Shown piece by piece: positions 20,301-55,240 of a DNA stretch of 64,000 bases; the stretch's first letter is position 1, and each line of letters opens with the position of its first letter. Position numbers and translations under genes: made by a program. The notes under the pieces were generated by a model. It did not search any database. It worked only from the letters and a program-made list of their open reading frames with translations, and was not told where the DNA came from. This DNA comes from Mytilus trossulus (lineage: Eukaryota), in NCBI RefSeq assembly GCF_036588685.1, contig NC_086379.1, forward strand, positions 24,118,001-24,182,000. Direction: 5' to 3'.

Positions 20301-20522
20301 TAAATAATGGCAACTAAGTATCGATTTTTAGATATTATAATTCACTTAGATCTAGTGATCGAGCCATATTGAATTCAAAAAGGGACTGTTATATAAATGA
20401 ATATTCGTTCAAAAGTCATAACTTAAACTATTTTCTAAAAATGACGACCATGATAAAATAAGAATACATATAAACGTGAATGAGCGATCATATGGAATGA
20501 AATAAACGGTACCAATTTTCTT

Positions 20523-20566
20523 GCACCAGATGCGCATTTCGACAATACATGTCTCTTCATTGATGC
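20523..20566 (-). ncRNA. Hammerhead copy with core mutation C3>A
   Basis: AUGAAGA instead of CUGAAGA; otherwise identical to 20875-20918. Confidence 0.8.
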
Positions 20567-20874
20567 TCGTGGCCAAAACATTTGAAATCCAAAGCTTATA
20601 TAAAAGATGAAGAGCTATAATCCAAAAGGTCCAAAAAGTATAGCCAAATCCGTGAAGGTAATCAGAGCCTTGCATGAGGGAGATACGTTCCTTAATTTAT
20701 AATAATTTATAATATTTTGTAACAGCAAATTTTAATAACACTAAAAAATCCGTATTTTCATGCCAGTACCGAAGTACTGGCTACTGGGCTGGTGCTACCC
20801 TCGGGGACTAATAGTCCACCAGCAGAGGCATCGACCCAGTGTATGAAATAAAATTACGGTACCAATATTTTCTT

Positions 20875-20918
20875 GCACCAGATGCGCATTTCGACAATAC
20901 ATGTCTCTTCAGTGATGC
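20875..20918 (-). ncRNA. Minimal type I hammerhead ribozyme, core intact
   Basis: GCAUCA-CUGAAGA-GACA uguau UGUC-GAAA-UGCGC-AUC^UGGUGC. Confidence 0.88.
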
Positions 20919-21095
20919 TCGTGAGAAATGCACATAATATATGATGAATGCACATAAGATATGATAAATATTTGTATGGATTACCTTACTGATATGATGA
21001 ACAAACGTATTCCAAAAAGTAAAACATATAGTAAGAAAAAAGGGAAAAACGACACTTGTGCAAAAAATAATTTTTAATTAACAACAATTTGGTAA

Positions 21096-21101
21096 TTTAT
21101 T
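21096..21101 (-). promoter_or_regulatory. Polyadenylation signal AATAAA of apextrin-like B
   Basis: AATAAA about 40 nt after the stop codon. Confidence 0.55.
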
Positions 21102-21139
21102 CGTACACTGTAAATGTGTGTTATTGGTGCCATAACAGT

Positions 21140-21395
21140 TTATCCAAAGACATAAGAACCTTGACGATCAATCTCGTAGTAACAAAAATATAAAGTGTGA
21201 TCTTTGTTACAGCCAGTGTCGTATGGATGATCTCCATGACAACTGTCTTTGTTGCTATCCTTTTCGTCATTAAAATGAAAATATTCTTCACTAACAACCA
21301 TGCCATGGACTTGCTGACATCCGCTGGTGTATCTCATTAAATAAAAAGGTTTGTCTATAGGTAGATAAATCTTGTCGGCGGTATGCCCATCATTT
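21140..21395 (-). CDS. Apextrin-like B, terminal ApeC exon
   Basis: NDGHTADKIYLPIDKPFYLMRYTSGCQQVHGM...LYFCYYEIDRQGSYVFG*; cag| acceptor. Confidence 0.9.
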
Positions 21396-24300
21396 CTGTA
21401 AATAATATTTAATCAAAACAATTTAACATTTATCATCGTATTTATTTATATAATTTTTAGGAACTAGACAATTGACATTTGCGTATTCATAATCAGCGAA
21501 TGTATACAGCGAGAGTAACCAATTAATACACCCTTCAAATGTGAAAATGTGAAAAAAAATTAATACACCTCAAAAAACATCCTGCTAACTGACACCAGTA
21601 ATAGTTACAAACAAAAACAATTTAAAATACAAAGAAATACATATTATGTTATAACAAACCATTGTATTTTTTTTTTGCATGTTTCAAAAAATCTTTGAAT
21701 AATCTAACTCTTGTAATCTTTTACCTGCAGCAGAAATAGATATCTGTGTCAGAACCATATGTTCCGTATGGTAAGATACCATTTACTGCGTTACCATTAC
21801 CGGAATTCTCATCATCCCAGTGAATATAGCCTTCATCAAAACCTTTGAATAGAAATAATTATATTGTATCATCTGTATTTATTTAAAAATATAACTTAAA
21901 TCTTGAACTTAGTCACAATGTATCTGACAATCTCTGCCATAAACAATAATACAGAATAAATTAGAATAAATGACCCTAATAATTATTCAAGTGCTATTTT
22001 ATCTTTCATAACGACTATTAGATGATACAGCTTGTATGTGGGTGAAAAATGCCAGAACCACATCAGTATCTACCAGAGATTAGGCACACGGCCTGGGAAA
22101 ATGGTTGCTCACTGTGATATCGTTGGATATATAGACAGCATTAAATGGTCCTTGATAACATTTCTTATTCCCTTCGTAATAAGATGGCACGTCAAGTGAC
22201 TCAATGAATGTTTTTGGTATCAACAAAGAGGGTTAATTTCACAACGTGTAATGCCCATAAATGTCAGAATTGAAATGTCTTAAGCTTGAATGTTATGTGG
22301 AACACAATTAAACTTTGAACCCTATGAGAAAGACATAGAAAGAGTTTAGAAAACCTCTTATGTGGCAAAACCTATATACAAACTAATATAATATTAACAC
22401 AAATTAAACAATTACTGTCCACACTGATCTGTTTCCATACAATATAGAGCTCTAGCTAAATTGCATCGAGACTACAACTGATGAGACCAAATTAAACAAA
22501 ATCAAAAACGATTAAGAACCACCTATTAAATTAAACATCTGATATTTAATAACAGTTACACACGTGAAATCAATTTAACAAACATAACATAGTGAGAACC
22601 ACTAACGGAACAGTCACAGCTTGTCCTTGCTCAATCTCAGGTTTCTGTGTAATTTTCAGGTATTGTTGTTACCGTTACTATATTTTTACAGTTTTCATTG
22701 CATTACTAAGTTTATGTTGTCCCTTTGATACTTTCTCTTTCTTTTCATACACTGTTCATTGTTTTTTTTCTTTCTAACCAATACTGCAATGTGATGTGAT
22801 CGTCTGACAGGAGCAGACAAGAAGGCGAAGGATATCAACCAAACAAGATGTACGCATACTTAATATATAATGTGCTGCTGTTATGGTTCATATCAATTTG
22901 TTTATGTTCATTATTGTATTTAGTATTATATTATAGATTGAAGTTAGTGTCATTAATCAGTAAATGTGAGAAACAGAATAGAAACATAAGATTTTATAGA
23001 GTAAAACCAGTGCCCAGCATATAACTATATGAAACAAATGTGTATTGTTTTATTGACCGTCATGGTACTTCACTATACTGCACTGTCTCAAGGTAATGGT
23101 AAAATATATTCTAAACAGAAAGTAAACTAATTTACAGAATTGTATGTGTTTGGTGTTCGTGAGACTGTGTTTTTTGCCAATCAGATCCATAAATATGCTT
23201 TTAAGGTCCCGAACTCTTTCTGCCATTAAAAAATCTGGACGAATTTTGTAAAAAAAGCCTTAAATTGTTAATACAAAACTCGATGAAACCAGTACTTTAT
23301 AAAAACTGTATTTGATGTGAAATATCAGAAAAAATGCATCGTCTGTCTTAACAACTGTGTAACATTTAAACTAGTAAGTTGGGAAGACATAAATAAAACT
23401 CAAATATGTTCTGAATATGATAAAGAGCATCTTCTGTAAAACTAAAATGTTCAGTTGTGAACACTGATCATTGAAGATTTCGGATATTAAATTTTTGTGA
23501 AACCGTCAATTGATCGCGCGGTTAATACAGGGAGCAATGAAGGATTTTGCACAACAAAAATAAGTCATTGAAATCCAAAACGTCACTACAGACATGTACA
23601 TAGCAAACTAGTTCGAGTATTAAATACAGTGAGATGGTGCTAAAGAAATATCGCAGTTAAAATATAAAAACAATTGGAAACCAAAAATCGTCTTTCTTGT
23701 GGCTAATTTGTATGATGAGTTTCCGGCGTAAAACTGAAATTTGAATCACAAAACAACATAACTGTAAATGTTATTGAACTTAACGAATGATTGGATTATA
23801 CGTGTCTTGACTGTTTTTTGCCAAAAACTGTGATTTATTAATATTGCAGTACAGTTACTAGTCACCTGCTAAAATGGCATTTGGTGCCTATCAAAAAACC
23901 TTAAAATATATATTTGCCGAAAGTACTGATGTTGTTGAGGAAAAAACTTAAAGCTTTTATGATTTGCTCAACACTAGCGCTTTATACAATAGGACATTTG
24001 TGCCTTTACATTATTTGCTTTTTATGACTTTCCTCCTATTAAATTCGGGCTTTGGACCGTTAGGTTTGACCTTGCAGTGTAAAACTTATTATTTCATACC
24101 ACATTAAAATTGTTATATGTAGAAATTATAAAGACACAAAGACACGTATAGCCATTGCATGTCTGTTTTTGGTATTTGATACTGAGGGAATGCAAACATT
24201 TACCCTTGTACTCTGTCCTGACTGGTAAGTTGCATACATTTCAAATAAGTACTATGCTATTTCTCTTTCTCTATTTCAACTTTTGACTGAGATCCCTGTT

Positions 24301-27300
24301 TGTTAATAAAACAAACTTAACATGTTTAAATGCAATTAACCGACTTTTGTTCAATAACAAAAATCCATCATGACATTTATATCTTCTTATTTATTTACCA
24401 GTCTAAATTGAAAACAACGTTCAATCCTATGATTGCGTTGGATGAAACCCGTAATTTTCTACATGTGCTCGTAAAACAAATTTCCCGGTAGAGGGGTCCA
24501 GATACAGCACAAACATTTTCAAATAGACTAAAAAATAAAGGAATCGGTATACTTTAACAAAATGCATTTGACTAACAGGTCGAACAATTGATGTTCTTAA
24601 ACCCTGCGGACTATTGCCAAATAAAATTGATCATAATACATAATAAGAACCTCCAATTAATCAGAAAAGAAAAAGATGTGTCCATCATATGATTATTTTG
24701 TTTATAACTTTCTATGGAACGAAAGGATTTGAAAATATATAAACTATGATTTTATTGTTCGTATAGAACTTCTGAGTACCATTGACATCATATTAACACG
24801 ACATTGTTTGCTGCTTTGTCGGCCGGGCGACTACAAAACGCTTCTGTGTTTTGTTTGGCTACGTTTCGCTAGTGTTTACTTTACGCAACTTTTAATAAAT
24901 GCAGGAATATTGTAATTGTTCAAACCATATTACGTACTTGTAGGACATGATCCATACTTCAGAATACAGTAATTTCCAGCGGGCCAATTCCTGCTGTACA
25001 CACCTGTATTTCCGGACGTCTGTGTGCAGAAGTAAAATTTGGAGTTTTGTTTAATATGTGTTTCACCTAATAAAATAGACCATTAAAATATATAAAATAA
25101 ACATATATTACGTTAATAATTTATACACTTTCCTGCAAATGACATGGTTATATCCACTTGATGGTCTTATCATTAAGCATTTTTACTTGGACTCTGCTGT
25201 ACCTCGTCTGACCATAACTTCCTATTAGTTGTTTTTTACTTATACAAAAAGTATTTTCCTATGAAACTGCTGACCCAATAAATAACAAAATAAGTAAGCA
25301 CTATCTTGTGTGGTATATAGTTTAAAATAAGTCTCTGATGATCCCCAGGACTAAACACTATGACCACGTAGGCAAACACTTAATCATAGTGGTAAACTAC
25401 AACTTGTATTAATAGTTTGAAAACCATAATACATAGGGAAAATCTGACACGAGCTTAAAGGTTCAGAACCTTGTCGACCAACATTGTCAGATTGCACTGT
25501 TTAAGAGTTATTTCCTTTGATTGGCGATTTTTACAAAAATCATAATGTGTAATTTGCCAATTGTTAAAAAAAACTATTATGTAAATACATCCAATATGAC
25601 CAGCAACACGATTTCTACTAATGAATCAATTGCCGAAAAAGTCTGTAGACTACTTACAAATGTATATGAGTTTTTTTTTCTTTTAAATAATGGTATGTAT
25701 ACCCTTTTAATGTGTTGGGCCAACAATAGAATTATAAAAAGACATTGTAAACCAAACAAAAGGTATGAGCAGAAAAAAATCTGCAAGTCGGTCAATTAAG
25801 TCGATATTTTCAGTAAACTTTATGCAAGGGCAATTTCCATTTCTGGGCTTTTGGCAAATGTTTTATACAATCAATTAAGAGACCAATAAATGAAGCTAAT
25901 GGTAGTATACCGCTGTTCAATAGACATCAATCGATTTAACTGAAACAAATCCGTGTCACAAACCAAAAGTGAGAGAAACACATCAACTACATGACTTGTT
26001 ATAAAAATAATTATTTTCTGTGACTGTATCTTACATTAATTTGTAGGATCCTTTACTATAGATAATTGAGCTGATCTGTAATAATAACATCTTCATGCCT
26101 TATATATCATGTACTGTAGTACGACGCTAGATTAAAACTGACGAGGAAAGGTAACACACGGCCACCGAAAGCTTTATTTTTGTAGAGCCCAGGTGGAAGT
26201 GTGGTTTAGCGGGACGGCTGCAGTGCAGGCGATTTGGTGTCACGATATCACAGTAGCATGGGTTCAAATCCCGGCGAGGGAAGAACCAACAATTTGCGAA
26301 AGCAAATTTACAGATCTAACATTTTTGGGTTGATGTTTAGACGAGTTGTATATACATTATGTACACAGCTATGTATCATCATCATTGATGGCGATCCAAT
26401 GGATAAATCTGTTGTAGAGTTGTCACTGACTCAGACGTACTTACACTACAAAAAGTCAAAAAGTCTGAAAAGACCAGTTTTTGTCTGAATTTGCATGAAT
26501 TTTTACTCGACATTCTTAATTTGTCTGAATAATTAAAAAAAATTATTGACTTAGAGTATGAATTTGTCTAATAAGGTTTTTAATTTTTCTTGACAAGTGT
26601 CTTGATAGTATGAACATTGTCATAAAATTTCTCGACACTTCCTGTATCATCTAATAATAGTCTGGATTAGTCTCGACCAATTCTTGACAGTCTTAAATTT
26701 GTCTCAATCTGTCTTGACGTATTCTTGACATTCTTAATAATGTCTGAATAATTCTTGACATTCTTAATAATGTCTGAATAATGTGAATATGTCTCGACAC
26801 ATTCTTGACAGTCTTAAATATGTCTTGACACTATCTCAGCATAAATTCCGAAAATTTTTTTTAGATCTATATTATGCATGCCTGTTTTAGATCCATTTCA
26901 TAAGAACAATGATTTCTATAGAAAGGGGACCCATTATAAGTACATTTTTTTATTATTCCTGGAGTAGATAATACTTTTCTTTTAATCTTTGGGTAATATT
27001 CATTTTTTTTATGTTGAAATAATTAACTCCATAATTTTGATGCAGAAAATAAAATTTAATTTCATTTTTTTTCATCAAAATAATGATTTTTATCTTGAAC
27101 AAACTGTTTAAATTGTAGTGATATGGTCAGTCAACTGATAAGTTGTATAACTTATTACAGGTACAGCAGTAATTTGAAAGTTGCGTGTACTCTAGGGTGT
27201 GGAATACCTTAATTTTATGGGGAACATCCTGTCCATGTGTAATACTTCTAACAGATGACATTACAAAAAAGTTTCTTCTGTTAAATGAAGGATTTGTATA

Positions 27301-30300
27301 TCATCATAATATGCTATTTATATAAACCACTTTGTGGTACAATAACATTTTACAATATAAACATTGAATATTAGGAACGTAGAATGAAATATGTCTACAG
27401 TATGATTGGTTTTAAATATTTTATTTATAAGATTTAGGAATCCAAATTTGTAATAATTTAAAAACCCATTTTAAATTGTTTTATATCAACACATTTCATA
27501 GACATATTTGCATTTGTAAAATCATATTTAAATACCCAAATTTTAAATTATTTTACATGCCCAACTTTTGTTTTTGAAGTGTGACTTGAAACAACAGTAT
27601 ATTATATAAAGAGAAATAAAGGTTAAAGTTATATCATGAATATTGGTCATGATTTGTAAAACTCAGAACTGTCAAGTCAATTTGAGACACAATTCAAAAT
27701 GTTAAGAATATGTCAAGCCATACTGAGAAAAAATAAGAATATCGAGAACATGTCGAGAAATTTTAAGACAGTATTCAAATGTCAAGTATTTGTCAAGAAA
27801 TTTTAAGACCATATTGAAGATATGTCAAGAACATTTCATACAAATTTGATATAAATGAGAATTTGTCAAGAAAAATTAAGACACAAGTCCTACTTTTGGA
27901 GAATGTCAAGTAAAAATTCATGCAAATCAAGACAAAAACTGGTCTTTTCAGACTTTTATACTTTTGTAGTAATATATATATAATATATACGAGTCTAAAT
28001 TGAAAACTACGTTCAAATCTATGATTGCGTAGGATGAAAACCGCAATTTTTATACGTGTGCATGTAAAACAAATTTCGTTGTAGAAGGGTCTAAAAAGAG
28101 CACAAACAACATTTTCAAAAAGACCAAAAAAGTAAAAAAGTATATTTAAACAAAACGCATTTGACCAACAGGTCGAATAACTGATGTTCTTAAACCCTGT
28201 TGACTGCAATTGGCGATTGCCAAATAAAATTGATCACTAGATGTAACAATATGGATCTTAATATAAATTTAATACTAAAAAGAAAAATAATAACTTGTGA
28301 CCACGATGTTATGCCACAAACATACGGTGTCAATATTATTTTAGTACACCAGATCCGGATTTCGACAATAAATGTCTTTTCAGTGATGTTAGGGATCAAA
28401 ACGGTATTTGGAAGGGCATATAAAAAGTACCCTCAATTTTAGAAAAAGTACCCTCATTTTTAGATAAATTTGAATTTTGAGAGTCAATATAGGATGAACG
28501 GATCATATAAACCGGAGGGAAAATATGATACAAGCCCAAGCGAAAAATTAAACGAGTATAAATTGAAAACTACGTTCAAACCTATGATAGCGTAGGATAA
28601 AAAACGCATTTTTTATACGTGTGCATGTAAAACAAATTTCGTTGTAGAAGGGTCTAAAACAGCACACACAACATTTTCATAAGACCAAAAAAGTGAAAAA
28701 GTATATTTAAACAAAACTCATTAGACCAACAGGTCGAACAACTGATGTTCTTAAACCCTTCTGAGTGCCATTGGCGATTGCCAAATAAAATTGATCACTA
28801 GATGTAACAAAATGGATCTTAATATAAATTTATTACTAAACAGAAAAAAAATAATTTGTGGCCACGATGTTATGCCACAAAAATACGGTTTCAATATTTT
28901 TTTAATACAGGGGTAAATTCAGTAAAAAAATATACGTCATCAGGGACCGCCCATTTAGGGGAGAGCTTTCTGTATAACACTGAAGTTATATGCTCTTCTG
29001 ATTGGCAGATATTTTTGTAATAAATATTTTTAGTAGATGGATCAAAACTAGAGTTGAAAAAAAAAATATATGCTGAATGTACTATTTTTTTCCCCTTACA
29101 GGGTTGAAAAGTAATGGGGGTCAGTATAGGAATTCAGTGCGAATCTACATTGTTTGTAAACAAGGCCATGTGAATGCCCAAAAATGTCGCATGACCCGAT
29201 GTTTTTATTGTTGCAAAAGAAAGGGCTACATTTGTACTTTCATGAATGATATATGAAAGATTTAAAGTTCTAAAGGTAAATCAGGTATAAATTTATTTCC
29301 ACACATATATTAGCATTAAAGTCAATGGGAGATTTTTTTATTGAATTTACCCCTATAGGAAAATATGCACTTTTTCACTGTACTTGTCCAAGGCCACACA
29401 ATAATCACAAAACTCATTTCCTGTAAATGTTAATGTAATGGAAGGATTTTGAAACCATTTAAAGCGGTTTTTTACACAAATTTCTATCTTTAACTGCGGC
29501 TACCCAGGATGCAATCAGTGTACTGTGAGAGAAGCATGAAGTATAATGTAAAAATCAGTTTTTGTTTCCAGATTGAAAGAAACAATAGAAGTTACACTTG
29601 ATAGTTATGATATCAATGAAAGGCATGCATATTCTCCCCATTTACATCACATTTCTCCTCATAATGTATAAATCATACTAGGAAAAAAATCGATAACCTA
29701 TTTACACCACTGGGTCGATGCCACTGCTGGTGGACGTTTCGTCCCCGAGGGTATCACCAGCCCAGTAGTCAACACTTCGGTGTTGACATGAATATCAATA
29801 ATGAGGTCATTTTAATAAATTTCCTGTTATAAAACTTTGAATTTTCGAAAAACTAAGGATTCTCTTATCCCAGACATAGATTACCTTAGCCGTATTTGGC
29901 ACAACTTTTGGAATTTTGGATCCTCAATGCTCTTCCACTTTGTACTTGTTTGGCTTAATAAATATTTTGATATGAGCGTCACTGATGAGTCTTATGTAGA
30001 CGAAACGCGCGTCTGGCGTACTAAATTATAATCCTGGAACTATTTACCTCTCTTTGACATATTGTTTTTTTAGCTGTGTTCCCCATGTTAAGTTGTAGAA
30101 CAAGTGGTAAATAAGCACTTTTCTAGTATTTTAACACTCGAATAATCTGACCGCATGAAGGTATTCATTTATTTTTACACATGGCCTTGGGTTTCTTTAT
30201 TTAAATAACATACCAGAAAAGTTTTCATGATTCATGTATTTCCGTAGTCCCAAAAGCCTTAAAGACTTGCTGGTGAGAGCTGATTTATCCTCTCAAGCAG

Positions 30301-33300
30301 GCTCTTCATCTATGGGCTCATGCAATGGTTGCGGAAACAAACGATGTCTGACTTGCAAACAAACACTGGATACCCAGACTTTTAACAGTCACTACACTGG
30401 CACAGAATACACCATATTTTGCAATGTTAATTGCAAGACTTCAAATGTTGGGTATCTCTTACAGTGTAAACGTGGTAAACAGTATGTTGGCGAGTCAGGA
30501 CAGCCGTTTCACAAACGAATGAACGGCCATCGTAGCGACTACCAATGCAAGCCAGACCTTCCTCTCAGTCGACATTTGAGATCCCCTGGAGGCAGATATC
30601 AATCGACTGACCATTGATATCATTGACTACAACTGTGCTTGGTCTAAGGAGGATAGACTTGCTCGGGAAATATTTTGGATAAGAAAATTAATAACTTTGG
30701 CACTAAATGGGATAAATGAAAACATGTAGTTCGACTCCGTGTAGTGCTTCATATTTGGGTTATATTACTTATTATTACAGTCTCTGTTTCTTTTTCTTAA
30801 CCGTATTCATTTATTAAATAAATTTGTTGAAGATACCAATTTAAATTGCTTATTTTGTTGAGGGATGTATAAGAACCAAGCAACGTTCTTCTAGTTATAC
30901 TTAGTCAAAAATAATTATTACATTTTAACAGCCGTTTGTTCACGATGTTTAAATATTCAGACTCTGTTGTAGCTACTTTACTCTGTCAATTTTAAAATTA
31001 AGATAGTTCAGTGCTGTCTATTTGGTAATTTTACAGACGTTATCATGCTTATACATGTTATACCATCATAATTGTCGTTCCCGATAAAGTTTTAGAATTG
31101 TGCTGGTTCAAATCGCACATCATTATTTGTATTTAAAGCATATATATATATGTGTGTGAGCTCTCTGTTGTAATAAGCCATATAACCTATGTCATGATTA
31201 ACAATTTTTTAGAATGATGCAAGCGTCTTAACTGATGTTCGGTTAGACTTTTTTATTGTATAAATTTAAAGATTTAGTAAAGGTTTAATCTAAGAAGACT
31301 TAAAGGTGATTCATTTAACATCAGAATCTGACTGACGAAGGATATCTGTTATCCGAAATATTTCTAAATACATTTACAGTTACCTTTTTTTTATGTTTGG
31401 AATTGTTGTGTACACTTTTTTAGGCATTTCTATATATATATGTCTAAATTGAAAACTACGTTCAAACCTATGATTGCGTTGGATAAAAACCATATATATA
31501 TCTATATACAGATCCTTATACATACATAGTTTGACCTACTCTGAATATGTGAAAATCCCATATTTGTAATTGGTAATTAATCTACACCAACATCAAAATG
31601 TGAAATATCAAATTATCTAGCAAGTGAGTTCTTTCGGTATTTAAACCAGCTCCCTTACCACAACAAAAATAGCTTATAGAAGTTTATTCCAATAAAGTAT
31701 ATCGATATACAAATAGTAGAATTAATCAGTGTTGGAGTTGACACATGAATTGCATTTTTGGATATTTTCGAAAATATAGACAATTGTTTGGTCGTCTCAA
31801 TTGTGTTGACATTTACAGTGTTTCGTCTTACTTGGCCTTTTCGCTTCTTTAATTCGATCGACACTGTCTTTTGTAGATGAAACATTCGTCTGCCGTATGA
31901 AATTGTAAAGTTTGTATCTATGATGAGTTTACTGATATTCTACAATCTACACCAAAATCATTGTGTCCTCTCAAGTGTTATGGACGTCATTTTATTTAAT
32001 CTAGTTCATATACCTCCTGGTTAGATAAATTGTGTTTAACATACACAATTAAATGAACTGTCTTTTTCAATATTTATTTACGCATACACTATTATTGTAT
32101 TATAATTGTATACTAACTTCTTTGTAACTTTGTATGTCTATGAGAATAAAATATTCGTATTCGTATTCGGTACGGTAAATTGCTTTTCCAAACTTAATAT
32201 TTAACAATTCTTATTCAGCGTATTAAATTTAAAGATTGAAACAATAACAACCTTGTTAAATGTCAAGAAACAAGTATCGACAGGATACTTTAGTACACCG
32301 AAACAAGTTTCAAAACTGCAAAACAATATATTTACCTATGTGCATGAATGTTCCTTTTTTTTTAGTTCTGTCCATGTTTTAAGATACATGTATTTTGACA
32401 ATTGATTTAGCTGTTGTCATTTACATTTTAGCTTTTCATGATTCAAAGATTTAAAAACAGAGACGAAAATATTTGAACCTTTTTATATGAGCGTCACTGG
32501 TGAGTTTTATGTAAACAAAACGCGCCACTGACTTATCAAATTATAAGCCTGGAACCTTAATTTTAAAATGTTTTTGAAAGCTTATTACCAGCTAAATGAT
32601 GCCCTAAAGACCATGAGTTAGCATCTGAATTGTCTTCGTTGTCATAAAATCTCCACCCTGTTTTAAACCAATGATTTGCATGAGGACATCCTGATACTGG
32701 TTGATATAATGAAAATGTTCCCATTGGCCACATTAATGGCACACTCAATACTTGCGTAATTTCTGAAAAGAAATTAAATTCTGAAAAAAACGTTAGATGG
32801 ATCCGCAAATTGTAATTTGATATCTACAAATCTTTGAACATAATGGTATCTTAAAGCTTGAATGTTTTATTCGAATTATTTTTACAATTTCAGCATTCTG
32901 TGTGATTGCTTATCGTAGAAGAGTAAGTAAAACCTTTATATGTCTGTGTTTTGTAGCTTTGCCATTTTGCCATTGACTTATAACCCACATTCTCTTATAT
33001 TTTGAACTGCTCTGATGCACCAATGCCCGCAATGACAACACAAGCGTCCTCTGAAAATGACAACCCTCTTTTGAAAAAAAACAAATAAACATTCAGATTT
33101 TCGGATTTTTTAGAATTTAATTAAACGAAAATATATTTGTTCATTGAATTAACTACGTGTTCTGAGACTCGACATATTAATTCATTGTCCTTTACTTTTG
33201 TTGTAATGCTTATAGGAGAGTTAGGCCGTAACAGTCACATTAGCCTTGAAAACCAAACGGAAAGGACGTTGAAAAAACTTAAACCCATCCTTTCCCACCC

Positions 33301-36300
33301 TAATAAATTTAATTTTATTTGCTGCTGGTCTATTTTTTTCATATGCTACAGTCTTCATACACATATCCGTCATAGTAACATGCTGAAGCAAAATTAAGTT
33401 GTGCCAAATACGGTTGAGGTAATCTGTGCCTTGAATGAGAAAATCCTTCGTTTTTCGAAAATTTCAAAGTGCACCGATGAGTCTTATGTAGACGAAACGT
33501 GCGTCTGGCGTATTAAATAATAATCTTGGTACCTTTGCTAACTATTTTGTAAAGAGGAAAATTATAAAAATGACCACATAATGGATGTTCCTGTCAACAC
33601 CGAAGTGCTGACTACTGGGCTTGCGATACCCTCCATCAGCAGTGGCATAAACCCAGTGGTGTAAATAACTGTAAAAAGTTATTAAAGCTACCAGGATTAT
33701 AATTTAGTTCGCCAGACGCGCGTTTAGTCTACATAAGACTCATAAGTGACGCTCATATCAAAATAATTCAAAGTTGAAGAGCATTGAGGATCCAAAATTT
33801 CCACAAAAAATGTGTCAAATACGGCTAAGGTAATCTAAGGTAACACGATGTTGTTGTGTTTGTTGTTGTTATTACTGTTGTTGTTGTTTGAAGAAATTTT
33901 GATTAAATGTTGACATGACAATTCAATATCCAAACAAAATCAGTGCTTGTAATTTTTTGTAGTGAAATACAAATCAAGTCATCATTGGTGTCTGTTCGTA
34001 AATTCTGATATTTTGGTAATTAAATGATACCTTTAATCAAATGATATATTGGGCACAGCTTTTTGGAACTTTGGTATTCGGTTTTCTTCAGCTGTGTGCT
34101 TTTTTTTTTGGCTTTCGAACTTTTTTCATCAGAGCGTCACTGGTTGGTCTTGTGTGGACGAAACGCGCGTCTGGCGTATTATATTTTAAACCTGGCACCT
34201 TTTGTTAGCTATTATTTGTGTGTTTCTCTGTCATTTATGTTCTCCCATTTATTTGTATGGTAGTCCTATCATGTAATGTTGTCATTTTAATGTGATATTT
34301 AACATTGGTGTAAAAGCTGGAGGTTTGGCATACCACAAAACCAGGTTCAATCAACCATTTTTTTTTTTTATCAAAATGCCATGTACCAAGTCAGGAAAAT
34401 GGCCATTGTTATATTATAGCTCGTTTCAGTGTGTGTTACATTTTAATATTGTGTGACCGTTGGGTCGTAGTTCTCTTCTTATATTTAATGTGTTTCCCTC
34501 AGTTTTAGTTTGTAATCACGCACTTTTTAAATGAACTATATATCGCTATTCGATAACATGTATCAGTATATACATATATACACAGTTATAGACTCTGATT
34601 GCTGTCATTTATATACCTCTTATATCTTTCGCCCCTGCCGATTAAAAGTTTTTTAAGATGAGTTTTCATAATACGGAAGATATTCTAGTTACCTGACGGT
34701 GTTGACATTATGCGATAGGTAGACGGGTATGTATGCATAGCTCTGCGCAGATTATGCTTTACCAGAGTAACTGCAAAAGTTCTGTTCATTAAAATGGGAC
34801 AAATGCTATCCCAATGCTGGATGCTGCCATATGTACCGAAATCGTCATGTAAGAATCGTGCAATGGACACCAAATGAAACTCAATGGGCTCAGATATACC
34901 CATTCTGCCAACATTCAGTTGTTTACGTTGGTTTCCGATTGTTAATGTTTTGAAATCTGATGTCGGTATGTTGGACATGTTAAGATAAGCCATAGTTCCG
35001 TCATCTTTTACAATTTCAACTTTCCATATAGGTGGATCGGTATATTTCTGAAAAAAATCATTCTGATTAATCATTTGTCATCATAATTATGGCCTAAAAC
35101 ATATTGAACCGCAATTCATTTTGTTATCAAATCCTGTCCCCCCAAAAAATATAAAATATTCTAGTACCAACCGTTTTCGATGTTTTCTCTAGTTTGGCAA
35201 ACAACGATATCACACAAATGATTTATTCCTAGTTTTAGATCAAGTACGTGTTTCTTCAAAATTTAATATTTAAATCTAAGCGTTGCTGCATGTAATCCGT
35301 GTTTATTTTCAACAAGCATCTTTTGTAAAAACATTATCAGAATTATTGAAAGTATATTGTGTGAAATCGGTTTCAATTAAAGTCATAAGAAACCTGAAAT
35401 TAAAAAAAATAATGCATATGTTTTTTATAACTCAATGGATAGTTTTCATTATAAAACTTATGTACATATACTTTTTTCTTTAGCAAATTCTTTAATTTGT
35501 TCATATTTATAAGAAGTTTACTTCTTTCCAGCAAGCAATTCCCCGACATATTTTCCGTATGCAAAGTGACCTCAGTGTGACCCATCTTGAAAAAACCGGT
35601 GATCGCAATACGCATGGATGTCCGTAAAAATAAACTATTATCTGATTGTACATGTTAATGCCCGAGTCACACTGTCCCGATTTTTATATACGATGGACAC
35701 CCGAATGCGAAAATTGTATATTCGTACGAAGTTGGTCCCGATCTCGTTAAAATACCAAAAAGTGACCGAAGCAAGTACGATGAATAACGAAGTCTATACG
35801 ATGGTGCCGAAATTATATACGATAGCAAAAGATGGACATATGAAGGTTAACCGAAGACGGGTATTTAAGCTTCATATCTCAGCCGAAGCCTACACGATTG
35901 ATCACGAAGGCTACACGATGGATTACGAAGGCTACACAATGGATCACGATGATAGCGCGATGGCCATACGATGTCTAAAAGACGTCGTGTAAGCTTACGA
36001 TGCATTTAAATTATATGTCGAAGGCATCACGCGTTTTAAAGACAATATTAAAGGTATTTCCAGTTACTGAATGTTTTGGTTGATTTCTAAAAAAAAATTA
36101 TGTATCAAATATGCATATTCATTTACCATTTTCTGCATGTGTCATATATAAATATAGTGTCCATATTTGTCCCCAATATGTTTCATACGAGGGGATGCCA
36201 CGCTCGGCATTGCTTTTTTTGAACTCTAAAATGTGTGCACTAGTCTGAATAATCACCCATAATTATGCCCATGTTTACTGATCTATCTTAAAGGTAAGGT

Positions 36301-39300
36301 AATGGGTTCGTTGATCCCTTTTATTCAAAAAGAGCTCTTTCCAGGAGAATATCATAATAACATAGACAAAAGGAAGGATGAGGGAAAGCAATAAATGCGG
36401 CAAAATATGAAATATAGACTACAAAATGGTTATGGAGTAAACATTCGTGTGACAACAACTCAGACGATACATTAAAAATCAGAATAATGAAGAAAAAGTT
36501 GGTTTCCCTATATACGTGTACCTGCAGTGTTGGTGTACGATGCGCGTTTATGATTTTCATTATGTTACTTGATATGAAAAAATGACAAAAAAAATATTTT
36601 ACTTGTAAAAGTAAATCCTGAGCCTGTAATAGCTGCTCTTTTTGTTCAATTTGAATTAACAGAAACAACGCTGTCGCCTTTCTTGTTCTCATAGAATCAT
36701 ATGATATGAGCTCAATGTTTTGTGAACGTCTTTCTTAACTGTCGTATTAGACTGACCAGTGCATATCGCGCATGGCACTTTAAATGTATTTTAGCGCTAA
36801 AATTAACTTACATTTATCTGGATTTATTGCCGTCGTAGTTCCATCTTGTCGCCTTCGTACTTTTATTCGATGGCAACACGACGGGATTACGAGGTATTCA
36901 CGAATTCGTGTTGCCATCGTAGGACCTTCGCGTAGCTTCGTGGTTCATTCGTGTAGACATCGTAATGTCAAAACTGCCCGATGGAAACGATGGAAACACG
37001 AATGCAATACGATGTTCAAAGATTCATTCCCGGTGACAATACGATGGCGAGGATGGTGATACGAACTCAATACGAACCCTCGACATCGGACGTACATTCG
37101 GGTTTTTTTTAACATGTTAAAAAATTTAGAACCCTTCCCGAAGTTTTCCCCGAAGGCCAGAAAAAGTGGCCGATAGTTCTACGATGGTTAAAGATTACAC
37201 TACGAATAGCCCGATCTGGACACGATCAGTCCCGATTTTAAAAATTTCCATAATCGTGTTGCCATCGGCGTAAAAATCTGGACAGTGTGACGCGTGCATT
37301 AACACGTACTCAATATCCATCCTTTTTGTTATTTGTTGACACAAAGGTGACAAACGTTAAACTTCGACTTCTAAACACGAACTTTAATTACCTGCCATAT
37401 TTTCATAACAACACTGACCGTTTGAAAAAAAAGTGACGATAATATGAAATTTATGCGAAAAAAATGATAAAATCGTGCACAAAAGACTAAGTTTATGATG
37501 TTTGTATGCATTGGTTTAAGAATTAGAATAACATTATTTTTCACCGGTCACTCGTTTATTACGACTTTAAACGAGGGAAATTTCTAGAATAGTTTTGTAT
37601 ACCTATATCATGTATATATAGTTACTGTTTTGTTTAGGACTGCTTTTTGATATTTTGCAGTACTGAAATACGTATGTTCAAAGTAATTTGAGACGAGTTT
37701 CTGATGATTACAATTTTAAGAAATGTATTGCACCAATTCATGGAAATATGCTCAGCTTAGTCCTTTGTACGATTTGGTTTTTTTGTATTTGCTACGAATT
37801 GATAATGTTAAATTGACACGTATATTTATAAAGAGTTGTCTTATTACAAAACAGCAAGCAGTCATTGGACGTATCGGTGTTATACACATTTGGAGAATAT
37901 GATATGTTGTTTAATTGACTTTTAAAAACTCATATTCGCTTCTTGATCTAACAGTATAATTGAATAGATTTTTTTGTCAAAAGTCAATGACATAAACCAA
38001 GTATCTAGATCTGTGAAAGCAAAGATCTGTTCTTTTATCTTAATTACGGAGAAAAAAGAAATTGAAAATTGAAAATTTGATAGATGTTTTGTGATTTTTT
38101 TGTAAAAGAGGGACGAAAGATACCAAAGGGACAGTCAAACTCATAAATCTGAAACAAACTGACAACGCCATGGCTGAAAATGAAAAAGACAAACAGAAAA
38201 ACAATAGTGCACATGACACAACATAGAAAACTAAAGAATAAACAACACGAACCCCTCCAAAAACTAGGAGTGATATCAGGTGCTCCGGAAGGGTAAAAAG
38301 ATCCTGGTCCACATGTGGCACCCGTCGTGTTGCTTATGTGATTACAAATCCGGTAAATAGTCTAATTCGGTAGGTCAAATTCATGAAAGGAAAGGGAATT
38401 GTAGTTACGACGTAAGGAACATATCCGATATCATTTGTGAAACGGTTATTCCATAACGATCAACCAACGCGTGATGGCGTCCGTAAAATTTACGAAGGGA
38501 TGATTTCAACTTCACCATTTGGAAATCTTGGTTTAATAGCTTCCTTGTGAGCAGTAACCCTCTATCAAGAAAATCGTGATAGGAAATGCAAGCACGGGAA
38601 TATCGTATCAATTGGGAGATATATACCCCGTATGCAGGTGCTGCTGGAATGTTGCTACTTCGAAATGGAAAGTTCACAATTGGAAAGCTGAAATTATCTC
38701 TTTTGTCGTAAAGTTTTGTTTTCAACCGACCGGCATTGTCAATTTCTAGATGTAAGTCAAGATATGTAGTATCCTTTATCTCCAGTTCGTTGGGATAGAT
38801 GCGTTACACATAGTCACCAACATTTGAATTGTTTAGTGAAAGAACATCATCTATATAGTGGAAAGTAGAGTTAAAGGATATTGCTAACTTCTTATCTTTC
38901 TTCCTAAGAAGTTCCTGCATGAAGTCAGCCTCATAATAATAAAGAAATAAGTCGGCAAGTAGAGGGGCACAGTTTGTTCCCATTGGAATGCCGACAGTCT
39001 GTTGAAAAACACGTCCTCCGAACGTAGCAAAATGTTTCCTTGTTTTGAGATTGCAACACAGTGATGACTGCTGTAAGCATATTTTGACTATTTTACCGAT
39101 TATGTCTGTTTTGTTCACACACCGTTGTAAATATAACAGAATTTCATGCGACTGTCATACAAGTCAGAGGTTCAGCGCTATAAAACCAGGTTCAATCCAC
39201 CGTTTTCTACATTTTAAAAGGCCTGAACCTTGTCGGGAATATGACAATTGTTACCATTTGTTTGATGTGTTTTGTCGTTTGATTTTGACATGCCATTTGA

Positions 39301-50904: not shown

Positions 50905-51530
50905 TGGCGAACCAAGATGTTATGCCACAAACATGAGGTGTTCGACAATAAATGTCCCTTCAGTGATGTTAGGAATCGAAACGGTATTTGGAAGGCCATA
51001 TAATTTACCCTCAATTTAAGATAGAATCTTGAATTTTAAGAGTCAATACAGGATGAACAGATCATATAAACCGGAGGGAAAATATGATACTAGCCCAAAC
51101 GAAGAAATATAAATAAGTCAATATTGAAAACTACGTTCAAATTAATTTCGTTGGATTAAAACCGCAATTGTTAACCCTGATGACTGCTATTGGCGTTTGC
51201 CAAAAAAAAAATTGATCACAAGATGTAACAAAATGGATTTTAATCTAAATTTAAAACTAATAGGAAAACAATAAACTTGTGGCCAATTTGTGTTGCCACA
51301 AACTTGAGTTGTCAATATTTTTGTACATCAGATCCGGATTTCGACAATAAATGTCTCTTCAGTGATGTTAGGGATCGAAACGGGATTTGGAAGGCCATAC
51401 AATTTACCCTCAATTTAAGATAGACTTTAAATTTTAAGAGTCAATATAGGATGAACGCATCATATAAACCATCGGGGAAATATGATACAAGCCCAAACGT
51501 AAAATATAAACAAGTCTAAATCGAAAACAA
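50905..51530 (-). mobile_element. Second retrozyme-like family, ~1.5 tandem units, directly 3' of the fucosyltransferase CDS
   Basis: Homologous to 27990-28905; hammerhead at 51325-51368 and a truncated one near 50941-50970 (399-nt spacing). Confidence 0.8.
51325..51368 (-). ncRNA. Minimal type I hammerhead ribozyme, core intact
   Basis: ACAUCA-CUGAAGA-GACA uuuau UGUC-GAAA-UCCGG-AUC^UGAUGU; helix I fully Watson-Crick. Confidence 0.88.
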
Positions 51531-51558: not shown

Positions 51559-52707
51559 TTAATTTTCTGTTTTTATCGTTATTTCATCATCAGACAAGCA
51601 CACATCTTTACGGTACCAGTCGTTATAATTTTTACCAGTCCATGTCAGGTTTCTCGTTTTATATGTATTCATTAATTCACATAAATCACACATTGCTCTC
51701 CAATAATTTTTTTCATTGTCTATATGATATTTATCAGTTTCTTTTAGATACGATATATATTCATTTTCATTTGATGCAAGTTTTAATAAATATTCGGCTA
51801 GATGTTTCGGACTGTCGAAATCAGAAACATCTATATAGGTTTTTGGAGGTAGAATCGATTTTACATTCGGAGCTGTTCTGGCTACATATATTGCATTACT
51901 ATTGTCTAGAAAGGTGTGGAAAACTTTCTCGGTTACATAATCTTTGCACAAACTATTTTCAAATCCTAAGTAAAATTTATAATTTTGAGACAAAAGTTCG
52001 TGACAGGCTGGCATACCTTCTACGGGACAAGGGGCTTTACCACATCGTCCATAAATATCAACACTAATATATTTTTCCATCTCCGAGACGTACTCGCGAC
52101 GTTTTGCCCCTGAGCCGCAATTGCTTACCGCCCAAGCAACCAATTTAGTTTTGTTTTTAAAAATCTCGTGGTAATTTTTATCTAAAGGCTGAGTCCTCCT
52201 AAAGGTTTCATAGTTCAACAGAATTTCACTGTCCTGTCTGTAAGTCATGCTCCAATCAAACTTCTTGTCCCACACGTGACTTAAATCTGAATCTGAAGCA
52301 GGGCTTTCAATATTGACAATCACCCAAATTTGACCATCTTTTTTTACTGGAACGTTGCTCCACATATCTCGATATGCAAATAAAACTGCTTCGCTGGTAT
52401 TAAGCTTTTTCTTGTCCTCAGTCAAAATACAATTTGTATATCTACACTCGGTGAAATTAAAACTTCCTTTGAAATAGGGTTGCTTTGCATACCACAGAAT
52501 ATGTATGTCTGGCTTAGTTTTGTTTTGGATTTTGGAAGTTGATGTAGCTTGTTCACTCATGTTACCTAATTCCACAAAGAATGATCTGAAATAAGATGTT
52601 GTTTGGGGATCTGGACGCAAAATCGTGATAATTTGCCTTTGTTCTAGCAGCACTAGTACTGCACCGATAAAAAATATGAAACAGTAAATAAAAAGTTTCT
52701 TCTTCAT
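51559..52707 (-). CDS. Alpha-(1,3)-fucosyltransferase (GT10), type II Golgi membrane protein, 382 aa, intronless CDS
   Basis: MKKK followed by a hydrophobic TM segment; NIESP, FDWSMTYRQDS, AWAVSNC, DIYGRCG, the alpha3-FucT motif YKFYLGFENSLCKDYVTEK, and CDLC; splice acceptor cag| at 52716-52718 just upstream of the ATG. Confidence 0.93.
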   Translation of the reverse strand: MKKKLFIYCFIFFIGAVLVLLEQRQIITILRPDPQTTSYFRSFFVELGNMSEQATSTSKIQNKTKPDIHILWYAKQPYFKGSFNFTECRYTNCILTEDKKKLNTSEAVLFAYRDMWSNVPVKKDGQIWVIVNIESPASDSDLSHVWDKKFDWSMTYRQDSEILLNYETFRRTQPLDKNYHEIFKNKTKLVAWAVSNCGSGAKRREYVSEMEKYISVDIYGRCGKAPCPVEGMPACHELLSQNYKFYLGFENSLCKDYVTEKVFHTFLDNSNAIYVARTAPNVKSILPPKTYIDVSDFDSPKHLAEYLLKLASNENEYISYLKETDKYHIDNEKNYWRAMCDLCELMNTYKTRNLTWTGKNYNDWYRKDVCLSDDEITIKTEN

Positions 52708-55097
52708 ATGAATACCTGCAACGTGAAAATAAGCTATTAATATACTTAGTATTTACATAAGAAATATGGTTCATGAAATTCGGAAAAGCCAGAAAATACA
52801 TGAATAGTGCTTTGAATGCATTATCTGTCCCTGAATATAAGTTTGGTAATGTTTAAAAGGCTACATGACTTTATTGGTTGTTTTTGGCTTTGTACTAGCT
52901 TTATTGACTGAGATTATCGATTCATTTTGCGTTTGTTTTTTTTGTGCTTCGTTTCTATTCGATGTGTAAATCTATCTCTAACTGATTTGAACGGTTTGTT
53001 CTTATGTTGTGCTTTTATGCCATTGTCCCAGATTCATGTGGGTGGTAAGTGCCCATAAACATGTGTGAGCCTGTGCATGTCACAGGTCGGAGGTCTGAAC
53101 GTCAGTATTTGTTGTTGCTTGGGGTCTGTATAATTTTATTGTTTCATTAATGTTTTGTCAAAAATCTGGGCAAACATATTTATGTTTAAATCGTTTAAAT
53201 CGTTTCACATTTTGTCAATTTGGTCCTTATAGACATATATTGTATAGGTTGCTCATTGTTGAAAGCCGAACAATGAGCTCATCATTTTGAGTAGTATGTT
53301 GAGTGTTTGTTTTATTAGCAATCATATCACATCTCATTGTATTAAATGCATAAAATTAGTTCCTCAAATTCTGTCAAATTTATGCATTCGCCTAACGATT
53401 TTGTTCTTAATTTCCATCGCATGATTAGCTTGATCTGTTTTAGAGTTTATCGAATTTAGTTAAGACAAAAAAAGAGCACGATCTATTTTTAGAATCCCTG
53501 GAAAAAAATGACCATTACTGCCTACATATATTTAATAAAGTCTACAAATCAGAGATGAAACACATTCCACTCCCATAACATTGAGAATTGAAATTGGAAT
53601 GTGTTTTTCCCGCTGCAAATGTTTGCACCTGTCCTAAGTCAGGAATCTGATGTACAGTAGTTGTCGTTTGTTTATGTAATATATACGTGTTTCTCGTTTC
53701 TCGTTTTGTTTATATAGATTAGACCGTTGGTTTTCCCGTTTGAATGGTTTTACACTAGTAATTTTGGGGCCCTTTATAGCTTTTTGTTCGGTGTGAGCCA
53801 AGGCTCCGTGTTGAAGGCCGTACTTTAACCTATAATGGTTTAATTTTTAAATTGTTATTTGGATGGAGAGTTGTCTCATTGGCACTCACACCACATCTTC
53901 CTATATCTACTTAGAGACAAAACTGCGACCAAAAGGGCCACCAAATAGTCTTCAGCACAGCGAGAAAAAAAATTACACACCCGGAGTCGGTCTTCAGTTG
54001 GCCAATAAACAATCATATGTACTGTTCGGTGAACTTCTCTTATCGCAAGCACTTTGCATGCAATAAGATATGAAAGTTTCTCTGCGCGACAAGCACATTA
54101 AATCCTCCCCTCAAGACCCTCCGATCTCTGATCCGTGGTGTGAACAATGCGATTTATGTTCTGGACAATGCATGGATCGTCATTTAATACTGCAACGGTT
54201 CAAATCACCCAGTAGATCATGTATGTAACATGAAACTGGTATAGAATAAAAAAAAAAAACATTCCAGCCGAACAAATGCACTCATTGTAAAATCATAGTT
54301 AATATTAGAATATTTTACAGAGTGTCATGGAACGGACAACGGTTTTAAGGTTAATGGTTATGTATGTAACACCCAAGTATACAACACAATCATATATTTG
54401 ATTTTTGAATTAACACGAATGTCAATTAAAACGTAAATAAACATACCTTAATTGGAATATGTGTGTTTTAAACTACACTCTATACTCATTCATACAAATA
54501 CAATGTTTTGTTTATTTATTTATAACTTTAATGTTAAAGGACACAAATTCTTCCTGTTAAAACTAGATATTTAAGCATTCCCCGGTACATTATGTTTTTC
54601 CTGGTATGTAAATGACATAATTATTATACTAAGTGCAGTTTAGCTTTGAGAGTTTAAATGTCATAATAGTATGACTTGTATAATTGTATTCATTCGTCCA
54701 AAATATTTAGTGATGTTGAAATTACTGAATACGCTGAACACGTATCTTTGTGGAGGAGGCATGTTTGCTTTCTTAATACACTGGTGAAAACAAATAACAT
54801 GATTATGTTTGCTTCTGTTGCTGTTTATAAAATTGATAATGCATTTCCTTGTAATGCATGTAATGCGGGCAAATGCAAAAATGGGTTGTTAACGTGTTTT
54901 ATGAGAATTTAAACCTCCATCATAAACCTAGTCAAATTGAATATGGATAAAACATACACTTGTCTCATTGGCACTCACACCACATCTTCCTATATCTATA
55001 TACATCAATACGCTAACTAAAACTCAGTTAAAAAGAAATCCTAGTCCGATGTTAGAAAGAGTAACCGAAGATAATAAACAAAAAGTACCATTTAAAC

Positions 55098-55240
55098 CAT
55101 CTTCGCTAGCCAAGGGTTACGGTCAACTCCCGCTCTCTTCATCTTCGCTAGCCAAGGGTTACGATTAACTCCCGCTCTCTTCACGAGAGGCTCTCTTCAC
55201 GAGAGCGGGAGTGGGTCGTAACCCTTGGCTAGCGAAGATG
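55098..55240. mobile_element. Tiny palindromic foldback element with a duplicated left arm
   Basis: catcttcgctagccaagggttacg..actcccgctctc twice, then its reverse complement; 7/9 flanking match catttaaac/cctttgaac. Confidence 0.8.

Follow-up and report, generated by a model that had tools for sequence, protein, structure and literature searches.

Background

The element analysed here has its closest described counterpart in the non-LTR retrozyme of Mytilus galloprovincialis (Cervera and de la Pena 2020, PMC7229834), presented there as 350-390-nt repeats in tandem units with a type I hammerhead, about 5,000 motifs, an AT-rich composition, no open reading frame (ORF) and abundant RNA, with abundant circles. 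Both circular RNA and self-cleavage were demonstrated for that mussel family, the cleavage being slow, at about 0.1 per minute (PMC7229834). A second point of reference is provided by the Penelope-like elements, for one of which internal initiation on AT-rich targets has been demonstrated in vitro (PMC11167929); in the same paper, genomic copies of Poseidon_Ac are described as ending at a fixed internal site downstream of the hammerhead, at AT-rich targets. In Xenopus, vertebrate non-LTR retrozymes, described as Penelope derivatives, occur as monomers and arrays, are enriched between genes and avoid introns, their overlaps with exons falling mostly in 3' UTRs (bioRxiv 10.64898/2026.07.22.740005). 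The question at stake is whether such abundant hammerheads cut host pre-mRNA in vivo. The main text of the mussel study (PMC7229834) reports no test of orientation or intron position, the main text of the Xenopus study leaves strand and core intactness unanalysed, and a published strand test on retrozymes is absent from the literature matches listed here; the supplements of these papers might bear on the point.

Here, we analyse a retrozyme copy in a 64,000-nt stretch of the Mytilus trossulus genome (contig NC_086379.1, positions 24,118,001 to 24,182,000, hereafter the window; coordinates below are those of the window), together with its relatives elsewhere in the genome. This copy is, very probably, a recent solo non-LTR retrozyme insertion behind the poly(A) signal of an apextrin gene, most likely without a role in that gene, and, taken singly, it is of little consequence.

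Anatomy and mobilization of the retrozyme

The insertion occupies positions 20496..20923 of the minus strand (428 nt, or 1.2 units), as delimited by the points where matches to other genomic copies stop, 20496/20497 and 20923; its 5' end lies 43 nt before the proximal ribozyme cut and its 3' end 32 nt beyond the distal one. Position names in the ribozyme core, such as C3 and G8, follow the hammerhead numbering convention. The first-pass annotation of this DNA had proposed two hammerheads on the gene's strand, 352 nt apart, with an intact proximal core and a C3>A change in the distal one, and scoring of cores and stems bears out this arrangement in full. Both ribozymes are of type I. The proximal hammerhead (20874..20919, minus strand) has the full set of conserved core bases and three intact stems according to pattern scoring, and is predicted from its sequence to cut at 20881/20880; the distal one (20522..20567, minus strand), with C3>A at 20560, is predicted to be inactive, its cut site being 20529/20528. 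Cut site to cut site, the unit spans 352 nt (20529..20880, minus strand). Compared with one unit from an array, it shows 330 identities, 19 mismatches and 4 gaps, and its top identity among the units tested is 95.5%, arrays being 96-99% identical internally; because the unit has decayed from its nearest copies, one broken core out of two is the outcome to be expected. All the RNA contigs listed, which derive from other animals, have C at the position where the distal core of the window copy has A (20560).

In other respects, the window copy is typical of its subfamily, with a 3' end at +32 and a length of 1.2 units. The unit is AT-rich, below the 50% GC that delimits metazoan non-LTR retrozymes, and no ORF of 100 aa was found inside the element; units of 350-352 nt, well within the 150-450-nt range of short retrozyme units, occur both as arrays and as solo copies. 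Inspection by eye revealed no evident target-site duplication around 20496-20923. An active retrozyme locus, as defined in bioRxiv 10.64898/2026.07.22.740005, carries two intact hammerheads; with C3>A in the distal core, this one does not. A genome pattern search recovered 4,979 intact-pattern copies of the 350-nt subfamily and 33,740 intact-pattern matches over the 350-, 355- and 575-nt subfamilies, the reversed-pattern control yielding 0 in both cases, and the 350-nt unit itself gave 83 matches at 93-95% identity, many of them in tandem arrays, when 40 of 1512 candidates were scored. Within the window, hammerheads were found by pattern and nhmmer scans (0 hits in the reversed-sequence control); the sole hammerhead match in an Rfam scan of the window is the copy at about 29976 (RF00163, 33 bits, gathering score 34). 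At the level of the family, RNA contigs cover the unit in four of four sequencing runs, two recorded as RNA and two guessed to be, a coverage that circles and tandem transcripts would give alike. Unit length, the type I hammerhead, tandem and dispersed copies, copy number, AT-richness and the missing ORF thus uphold the retrozyme identity proposed from the letters alone, and the element matches the published description, as distinct from the clone sequences, of the already known mussel non-LTR retrozyme, of which the window copy is an ordinary member.

The ends of these elements speak to the way in which they move. Among 73 mapped elements of the 350-nt subfamily, drawn from the window and 60 further stretches, a few of them representing one duplicated block and all selected for an intact motif and hence unable to show ends before the cut, 68 end +28 to +40 past the cut site, and their 5' ends are scattered; among copies of the 355-nt subfamily that were not so selected, 43 of 92 have their end between +30 and +49. 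A fixed internal 3' end combined with variable 5' truncation is the signature of Penelope-type mobilization. In both subfamilies, the 3' end falls a few bases short of a GC-rich stem-loop, which the window copy has in common with the 355-nt subfamily (20783..20841, minus strand) and for which folding z is -2.7 and -3.0 in the two subfamilies. In the examined loci, 96 of 99 matches to this stem-loop lie within retrozymes and the other 3 in retrozyme fragments, with no Naiad start among them, and we consider the structure a candidate recognition element for the reverse transcriptase (RT). A second ribozyme on the strand opposite the stem-loop was also considered, and Rfam gave no match there. 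Since a linear monomer would stop at the cut, the template most likely extended through it, either as a circle or as an uncut multimer.

Under the preferred scenario, a Penelope-type RT would have been primed on AT-rich DNA, begun synthesis about 32 nt past the ribozyme cut, moved from there back over the cut site on a template of circular (or uncut multimeric) RNA and halted after 1.2 turns, which would account for two hammerheads one unit apart. The insertion would then have decayed to about 5% divergence from its nearest copies, with one core hit in the process.

Retrozymes behind genes

The gene upstream of the insertion is an intact apextrin-like gene (21140..48932, minus strand) of 9 coding exons and about 558 aa with an uninterrupted ORF. 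The protein has a signal-peptide-like start, ApeC matches in 4 of 8 exons scanned and a weak MACPF match (E=0.027, under the Pfam cut-off), and the last introns are spliced in RNA contigs from 3 of 4 runs. Its poly(A) signal, AATAAA at 21096..21101 (minus strand), is conserved in the paralogue. The predicted cut falls 259 nt beyond the stop codon (21142-21140) and 215 nt beyond the AATAAA (21101-21096), both distances being those originally given. The apextrin RNA contigs end at 21092, 21123 and 21154, assembled contigs being unable to show true ends, and among the pieces listed (from runs on other animals, with 402 further pieces outside the listing) none joins the apextrin UTR to the retrozyme. 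A short coding-like open stretch, 79% conserved in the paralogue, was also seen in the seventh apextrin intron (22050-22300).

The second intact gene in the window, a GT10 fucosyltransferase with a single-exon open frame (51559..52752, minus strand), is followed, beginning about 34 nt past its stop, by a retrozyme of the 575-nt subfamily (50913..51528, minus strand) that contains one intact hammerhead (51325-51368) and one broken hammerhead (50934-50970), both on the minus strand. The intact one, in sense orientation, has its predicted cut at 51331/51330, 228 nt 3' of the stop, and precedes the first AATAAA (+724 from the stop); the first ATTAAA is at +318. The observation that both intact genes carry a core-intact sense hammerhead at a similar distance past the stop (259 and 228 nt) therefore stands, but the two copies are unlike: the apextrin one belongs to the 350-nt subfamily and lies after its AATAAA, and the fucosyltransferase one belongs to the 575-nt subfamily and lies before the first AATAAA. 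Located upstream of the canonical signal, the fucosyltransferase copy could remove the tail of its mRNA, and if either of the two copies truly affects a host mRNA, this one is the better candidate. Elsewhere on this side of the window, 55098-55240 contains a GC-rich hairpin that is nearly perfect and has a partial third arm, for which all Rfam miRNA matches are far below the gathering scores.

It had been suggested that active ribozymes are tolerated or used past the coding sequence (CDS). We therefore turned to 88 other gene ends (29 ApeC, 29 GT10 and 30 C1q, three families with 129 kb of downstream DNA in total), where not a single intact sense hammerhead occurs within about 1.5 kb downstream: the 7 sense copies are all broken, and the 8 antisense hits include one fully intact and two core-intact ones. 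Over these ends, the chance expectation for intact sense copies in the first 500 nt is about 0.6, and accordingly, a tenfold enrichment behind stops is unlikely, a small one being still compatible with the data. The same contig contains a paralogous block of fucosyltransferase and apextrin genes (13900001-13930000), with exons 83-91% identical, that has no hammerhead in its introns or within 5 kb of either stop; its sole hammerhead is broken and lies 5.9 kb downstream. Thus, the 3' ribozyme is not conserved at the same place in paralogues, being missing from this block and, in 29 of 29 cases, from the other ApeC last exons, and the combination of 0 of 88 gene ends and a paralogous block that lacks both copies speaks against the proposed use past the CDS. 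The paralogous block is also more compact and nearly retrozyme-free.

Co-option could, in principle, take the form of a terminator resembling co-transcriptional cleavage (CoTC), with the proximal hammerhead cutting read-through RNA 215 nt past the AATAAA and releasing the transcript early. The placement and orientation of this hammerhead suit such a role, and an engineered hammerhead behind a poly(A) site indeed caused early transcript release in HeLa cells (PMC2288634), but the same engineered ribozyme left the termination profile and 3' processing unchanged (PMC2288634), implying that a cut behind the poly(A) site can be harmless. The published rate of the mussel ribozyme, about 0.1 per minute (PMC7229834), is a further difficulty, and so is the record of the locus, with a recent copy that is missing from the paralogue and finds no equivalent at the 88 other gene ends. 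The cleavage product, moreover, would bear a 5'-OH end, and such ends are poor Xrn2 substrates. Given the slow ribozyme, the recent origin and the lack of conservation, we regard a terminator function as very improbable.

Another form of use past the CDS would make the apextrin locus a source of retrozyme RNA, with read-through transcripts supplying monomers and circles. A full sense unit does lie behind a transcribed gene, and contig depth is far greater for the retrozyme (hundreds to over 1,000, all copies pooled) than for apextrin (9-26). The unit's own 3' hammerhead, though, is the one broken by C3>A, which makes the locus a poor source of circles: the 3' cut should fail, and simple monomer release should be blocked, unless the proximal core stands in for it through a swapped dimer. 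The C found at the 20560 position in all the listed RNA contigs points the same way, weakly, as these come from other animals, and thousands of intact tandem units exist elsewhere in the genome. We consider this second form of use very unlikely.

The preferred reading, a solo insertion without a role in the gene, has its own counter-evidence. An intact sense motif is expected within 500 nt behind a gene with a chance of about 0.65% (arrays counted uncollapsed), and the presence of such a copy, no more than 260 nt away, behind both intact genes of the window is an unlikely pair of events of roughly this frequency each. Two of two would be unusual had the pair been chosen beforehand; the window was picked after the fact. 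The window is also rich in hammerheads, with 11 hits in 64 kb, against 18 in 200 kb of evenly placed stretches. Landing behind an immune-type gene most likely reflects chance and not a working part of the gene, and the copy probably persists because a slow cut made beyond the poly(A) signal should spare the mRNA.

Introns, gene bodies and strand

The first-pass annotation had further proposed that active ribozymes are purged from pre-mRNA, on the strength of the hammerheads in the apextrin introns. In the intact gene, these comprise a sense copy of the 575-nt subfamily with a core broken by G8>A (28346..28389, minus strand), an intact antisense copy of the 355-nt subfamily (29975..30020, plus strand; intact by core scoring, and the one with the RF00163 match of 33 bits), four broken hammerheads between 32490 and 34178 (those at 32490, 33472 and 34133 antisense, that at 33710 sense) and a weak additional antisense one at 31864. 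A broken sense hammerhead at about 2207 sits not in this gene but in an upstream apextrin paralogue, the fourth exon of which is interrupted by a LINE. The earlier tally was thus right about the broken sense copies at 2207, 28346 and 33710 and the intact antisense one at 29975, and omitted the broken antisense copies at 32490, 33472 and 34133; with these included, intact cores in the introns of the intact gene number 0 of 2 in sense and 1 of 4 in antisense (Fisher p=1). The LINE (RVT_1, zf-RVT; 3603-10790) lies in antisense where exon 4 of the paralogue begins, and together with that exon is tandemly duplicated at 99-100% identity with a 3,604-nt period, reflecting either a recent duplication or an assembly artefact. 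Decayed fragments of Naiad-type Penelope elements are present in the introns of both apextrin copies (12213-12880, 38109-39154 and 46023-46260).

Beyond the window, purging is not absolute. At locus L241, an intact sense hammerhead lies inside a 1,082-nt GT-AG intron of a CoA-transferase gene, an intron spliced in 4 of 4 RNA runs (from animals that may lack the insertion), and at locus L220, another lies between two caspase exons; L224 and L247 are possible further intact sense intronic cases, and L196 has an antisense copy in a helicase gene. The L241 copy is a 140-nt retrozyme fragment nested in another repeat (L241:4911-5050), and its insertion seems to have replaced about 9 nt of target, with no duplication. 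For a broader view of orientation, we used a 5-mer strand score that, in leave-one-gene-out trials, was correct for 74 of 77 gene-body stretches. Sixty stretches were scored in this way, 54 of them drawn from the first 100 among the 4,979 matches (one long array excluded) and 6 from the similarity matches of the 350-nt unit; 2 with no fully intact motif were dropped. The remaining 58 intact loci divide into 26 sense-leaning, 31 antisense-leaning and one at zero (Wilcoxon p=0.25); where the score exceeds 5 units on both flanks, there are 5 sense and 10 antisense loci (p=0.30, with a post hoc threshold). None of the 58 loci has a sense-oriented last exon, confirmed by Pfam, in the 500 nt upstream, a result of low sensitivity given that most loci are unannotated and that the retrained exon finder was noisy (150 of 271 candidates were sent to Pfam and about 35 matched, many from transposons).

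A weak trend nevertheless runs in the direction proposed. Outside the window, copies near genes that were not selected for intactness have an intact core in 1 of 15 cases in sense and in 6 of 15 in antisense (p=0.08), a count that takes in the zone behind the stop; in the flanks only, the figures are 0 of 12 and 4 of 11 (p=0.04, with the data split post hoc). It is therefore plausible that intact sense copies are partially selected against, and such selection seemingly reaches behind the stop, an extension that appears to run opposite to the idea of tolerance past the CDS. Sense copies near genes being more often broken than antisense ones, placement may not be wholly neutral.

The body of conserved genes presents another facet of the problem. 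Inside 14 myosin genes and 7 dynein genes, all of known strand, we found 5 hammerhead loci in 732 kb (2 sense, 3 antisense), compared with 11 in 200 kb of evenly placed background (20 stretches), a difference significant both by length (p=7e-5) and by stretch (4 of 77 vs 7 of 20, p=0.001). Retrozymes are thus about 8-fold rarer within these gene bodies, in both orientations. The 3' ends of ribozyme-free Naiad elements, labelled by the DKA-type motif (PMC8557442), are similarly rare there (5 vs 9 loci, p=7e-4), and two other repeats are not depleted (ratios 0.72 and 0.60; p=0.34 and 0.36). Because ribozyme-free Naiad ends are about as rare, and the retrozymes are rare in both orientations, the scarcity requires neither a ribozyme nor sense orientation, and, within the limits of two motor-protein gene families and a small background, it more likely reflects the insertion sites of the Penelope-type machinery or regional tolerance than cleavage. 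In the stretches around intact retrozymes (L191-L250), other retrozymes and Naiad ends reach 14.8 and 8.7 loci per 100 kb, respectively, vs 5.5 and 4.5 in evenly placed DNA, and this clustering suggests shared insertion hot regions. One of the myosin genes harbors an intact, antisense seven-unit array of the 575-nt subfamily (L078:1215-4705).

Could selection on the ribozyme itself operate in addition to insertion preference, as its supplement and not its replacement? Under this possibility, intact sense hammerheads would be partly removed from all DNA transcribed by Pol II, introns and the read-through zone alike, and the two window copies would be young survivors. The excess of intact cores among antisense copies near genes (6 of 15 against 1 of 15) and the surplus of antisense over sense among intact loci clearly genic on both flanks (10 against 5, p=0.30) fit such a process, but the 58 intact loci show no significant bias, intact sense copies do occur in introns, and the total number of copies near genes is balanced between the strands (15 vs 15). 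We entertain this possibility tentatively, as one that may well prove incorrect. A joint reading, which we consider rather unlikely, would combine the two: elements mobilized by Penelope would keep out of conserved gene bodies in either orientation, and selection would additionally act against intact sense ribozymes wherever Pol II reads, behind the stop included, the survivors being young regulatory alleles. If this were the case, two layers of filtering would be recorded over some 34,000 mussel hammerheads, the fucosyltransferase mRNA would lose its tail to the copy behind the gene, cleavage by the apextrin copy would set read-through RNA free early, and ribozyme activity in vivo could be measured from strand bias alone.

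Relationship to known systems

Returning to our preferred explanation, a Penelope-type insertion that is most likely without a role in the apextrin gene, the systems to which this locus can be compared differ from it in instructive ways. Terminators based on co-transcriptional cleavage or engineered ribozymes share with the apextrin copy a cut downstream of the poly(A) signal (PMC2288634); those are engineered, fast ribozymes in human cells, and the window copy is unlikely to act in this way. The antisense bias of intronic transposons (PMC3517506) resembles the strand trend seen here in the general idea of selection against sense copies, which that work credits to termination signals, not self-cleavage. 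Poseidon_Ac shares the fixed internal end but is autonomous, with an RT and a GIY-YIG, and starts about 85-90 nt past the cut, as opposed to about 32 nt in the mussel retrozyme (PMC11167929). The depletion in mussel gene bodies is stronger than that described for Xenopus (bioRxiv 10.64898/2026.07.22.740005) and is also common to the ribozyme-free Naiads. Compared with the M. galloprovincialis retrozyme (PMC7229834), to which ours is likened by description and not by clone sequence, a third subfamily of 575 nt is added and about 33,700 motifs are counted. Several by-products of this analysis extend beyond the main texts of PMC7229834 and bioRxiv 10.64898/2026.07.22.740005: intact sense hammerheads can occupy spliced introns; the scarcity of retrozymes in conserved genes is strand-neutral and extends to Naiad elements, which have no ribozyme; and intact cores may be subject to a weak loss specific to the sense orientation.
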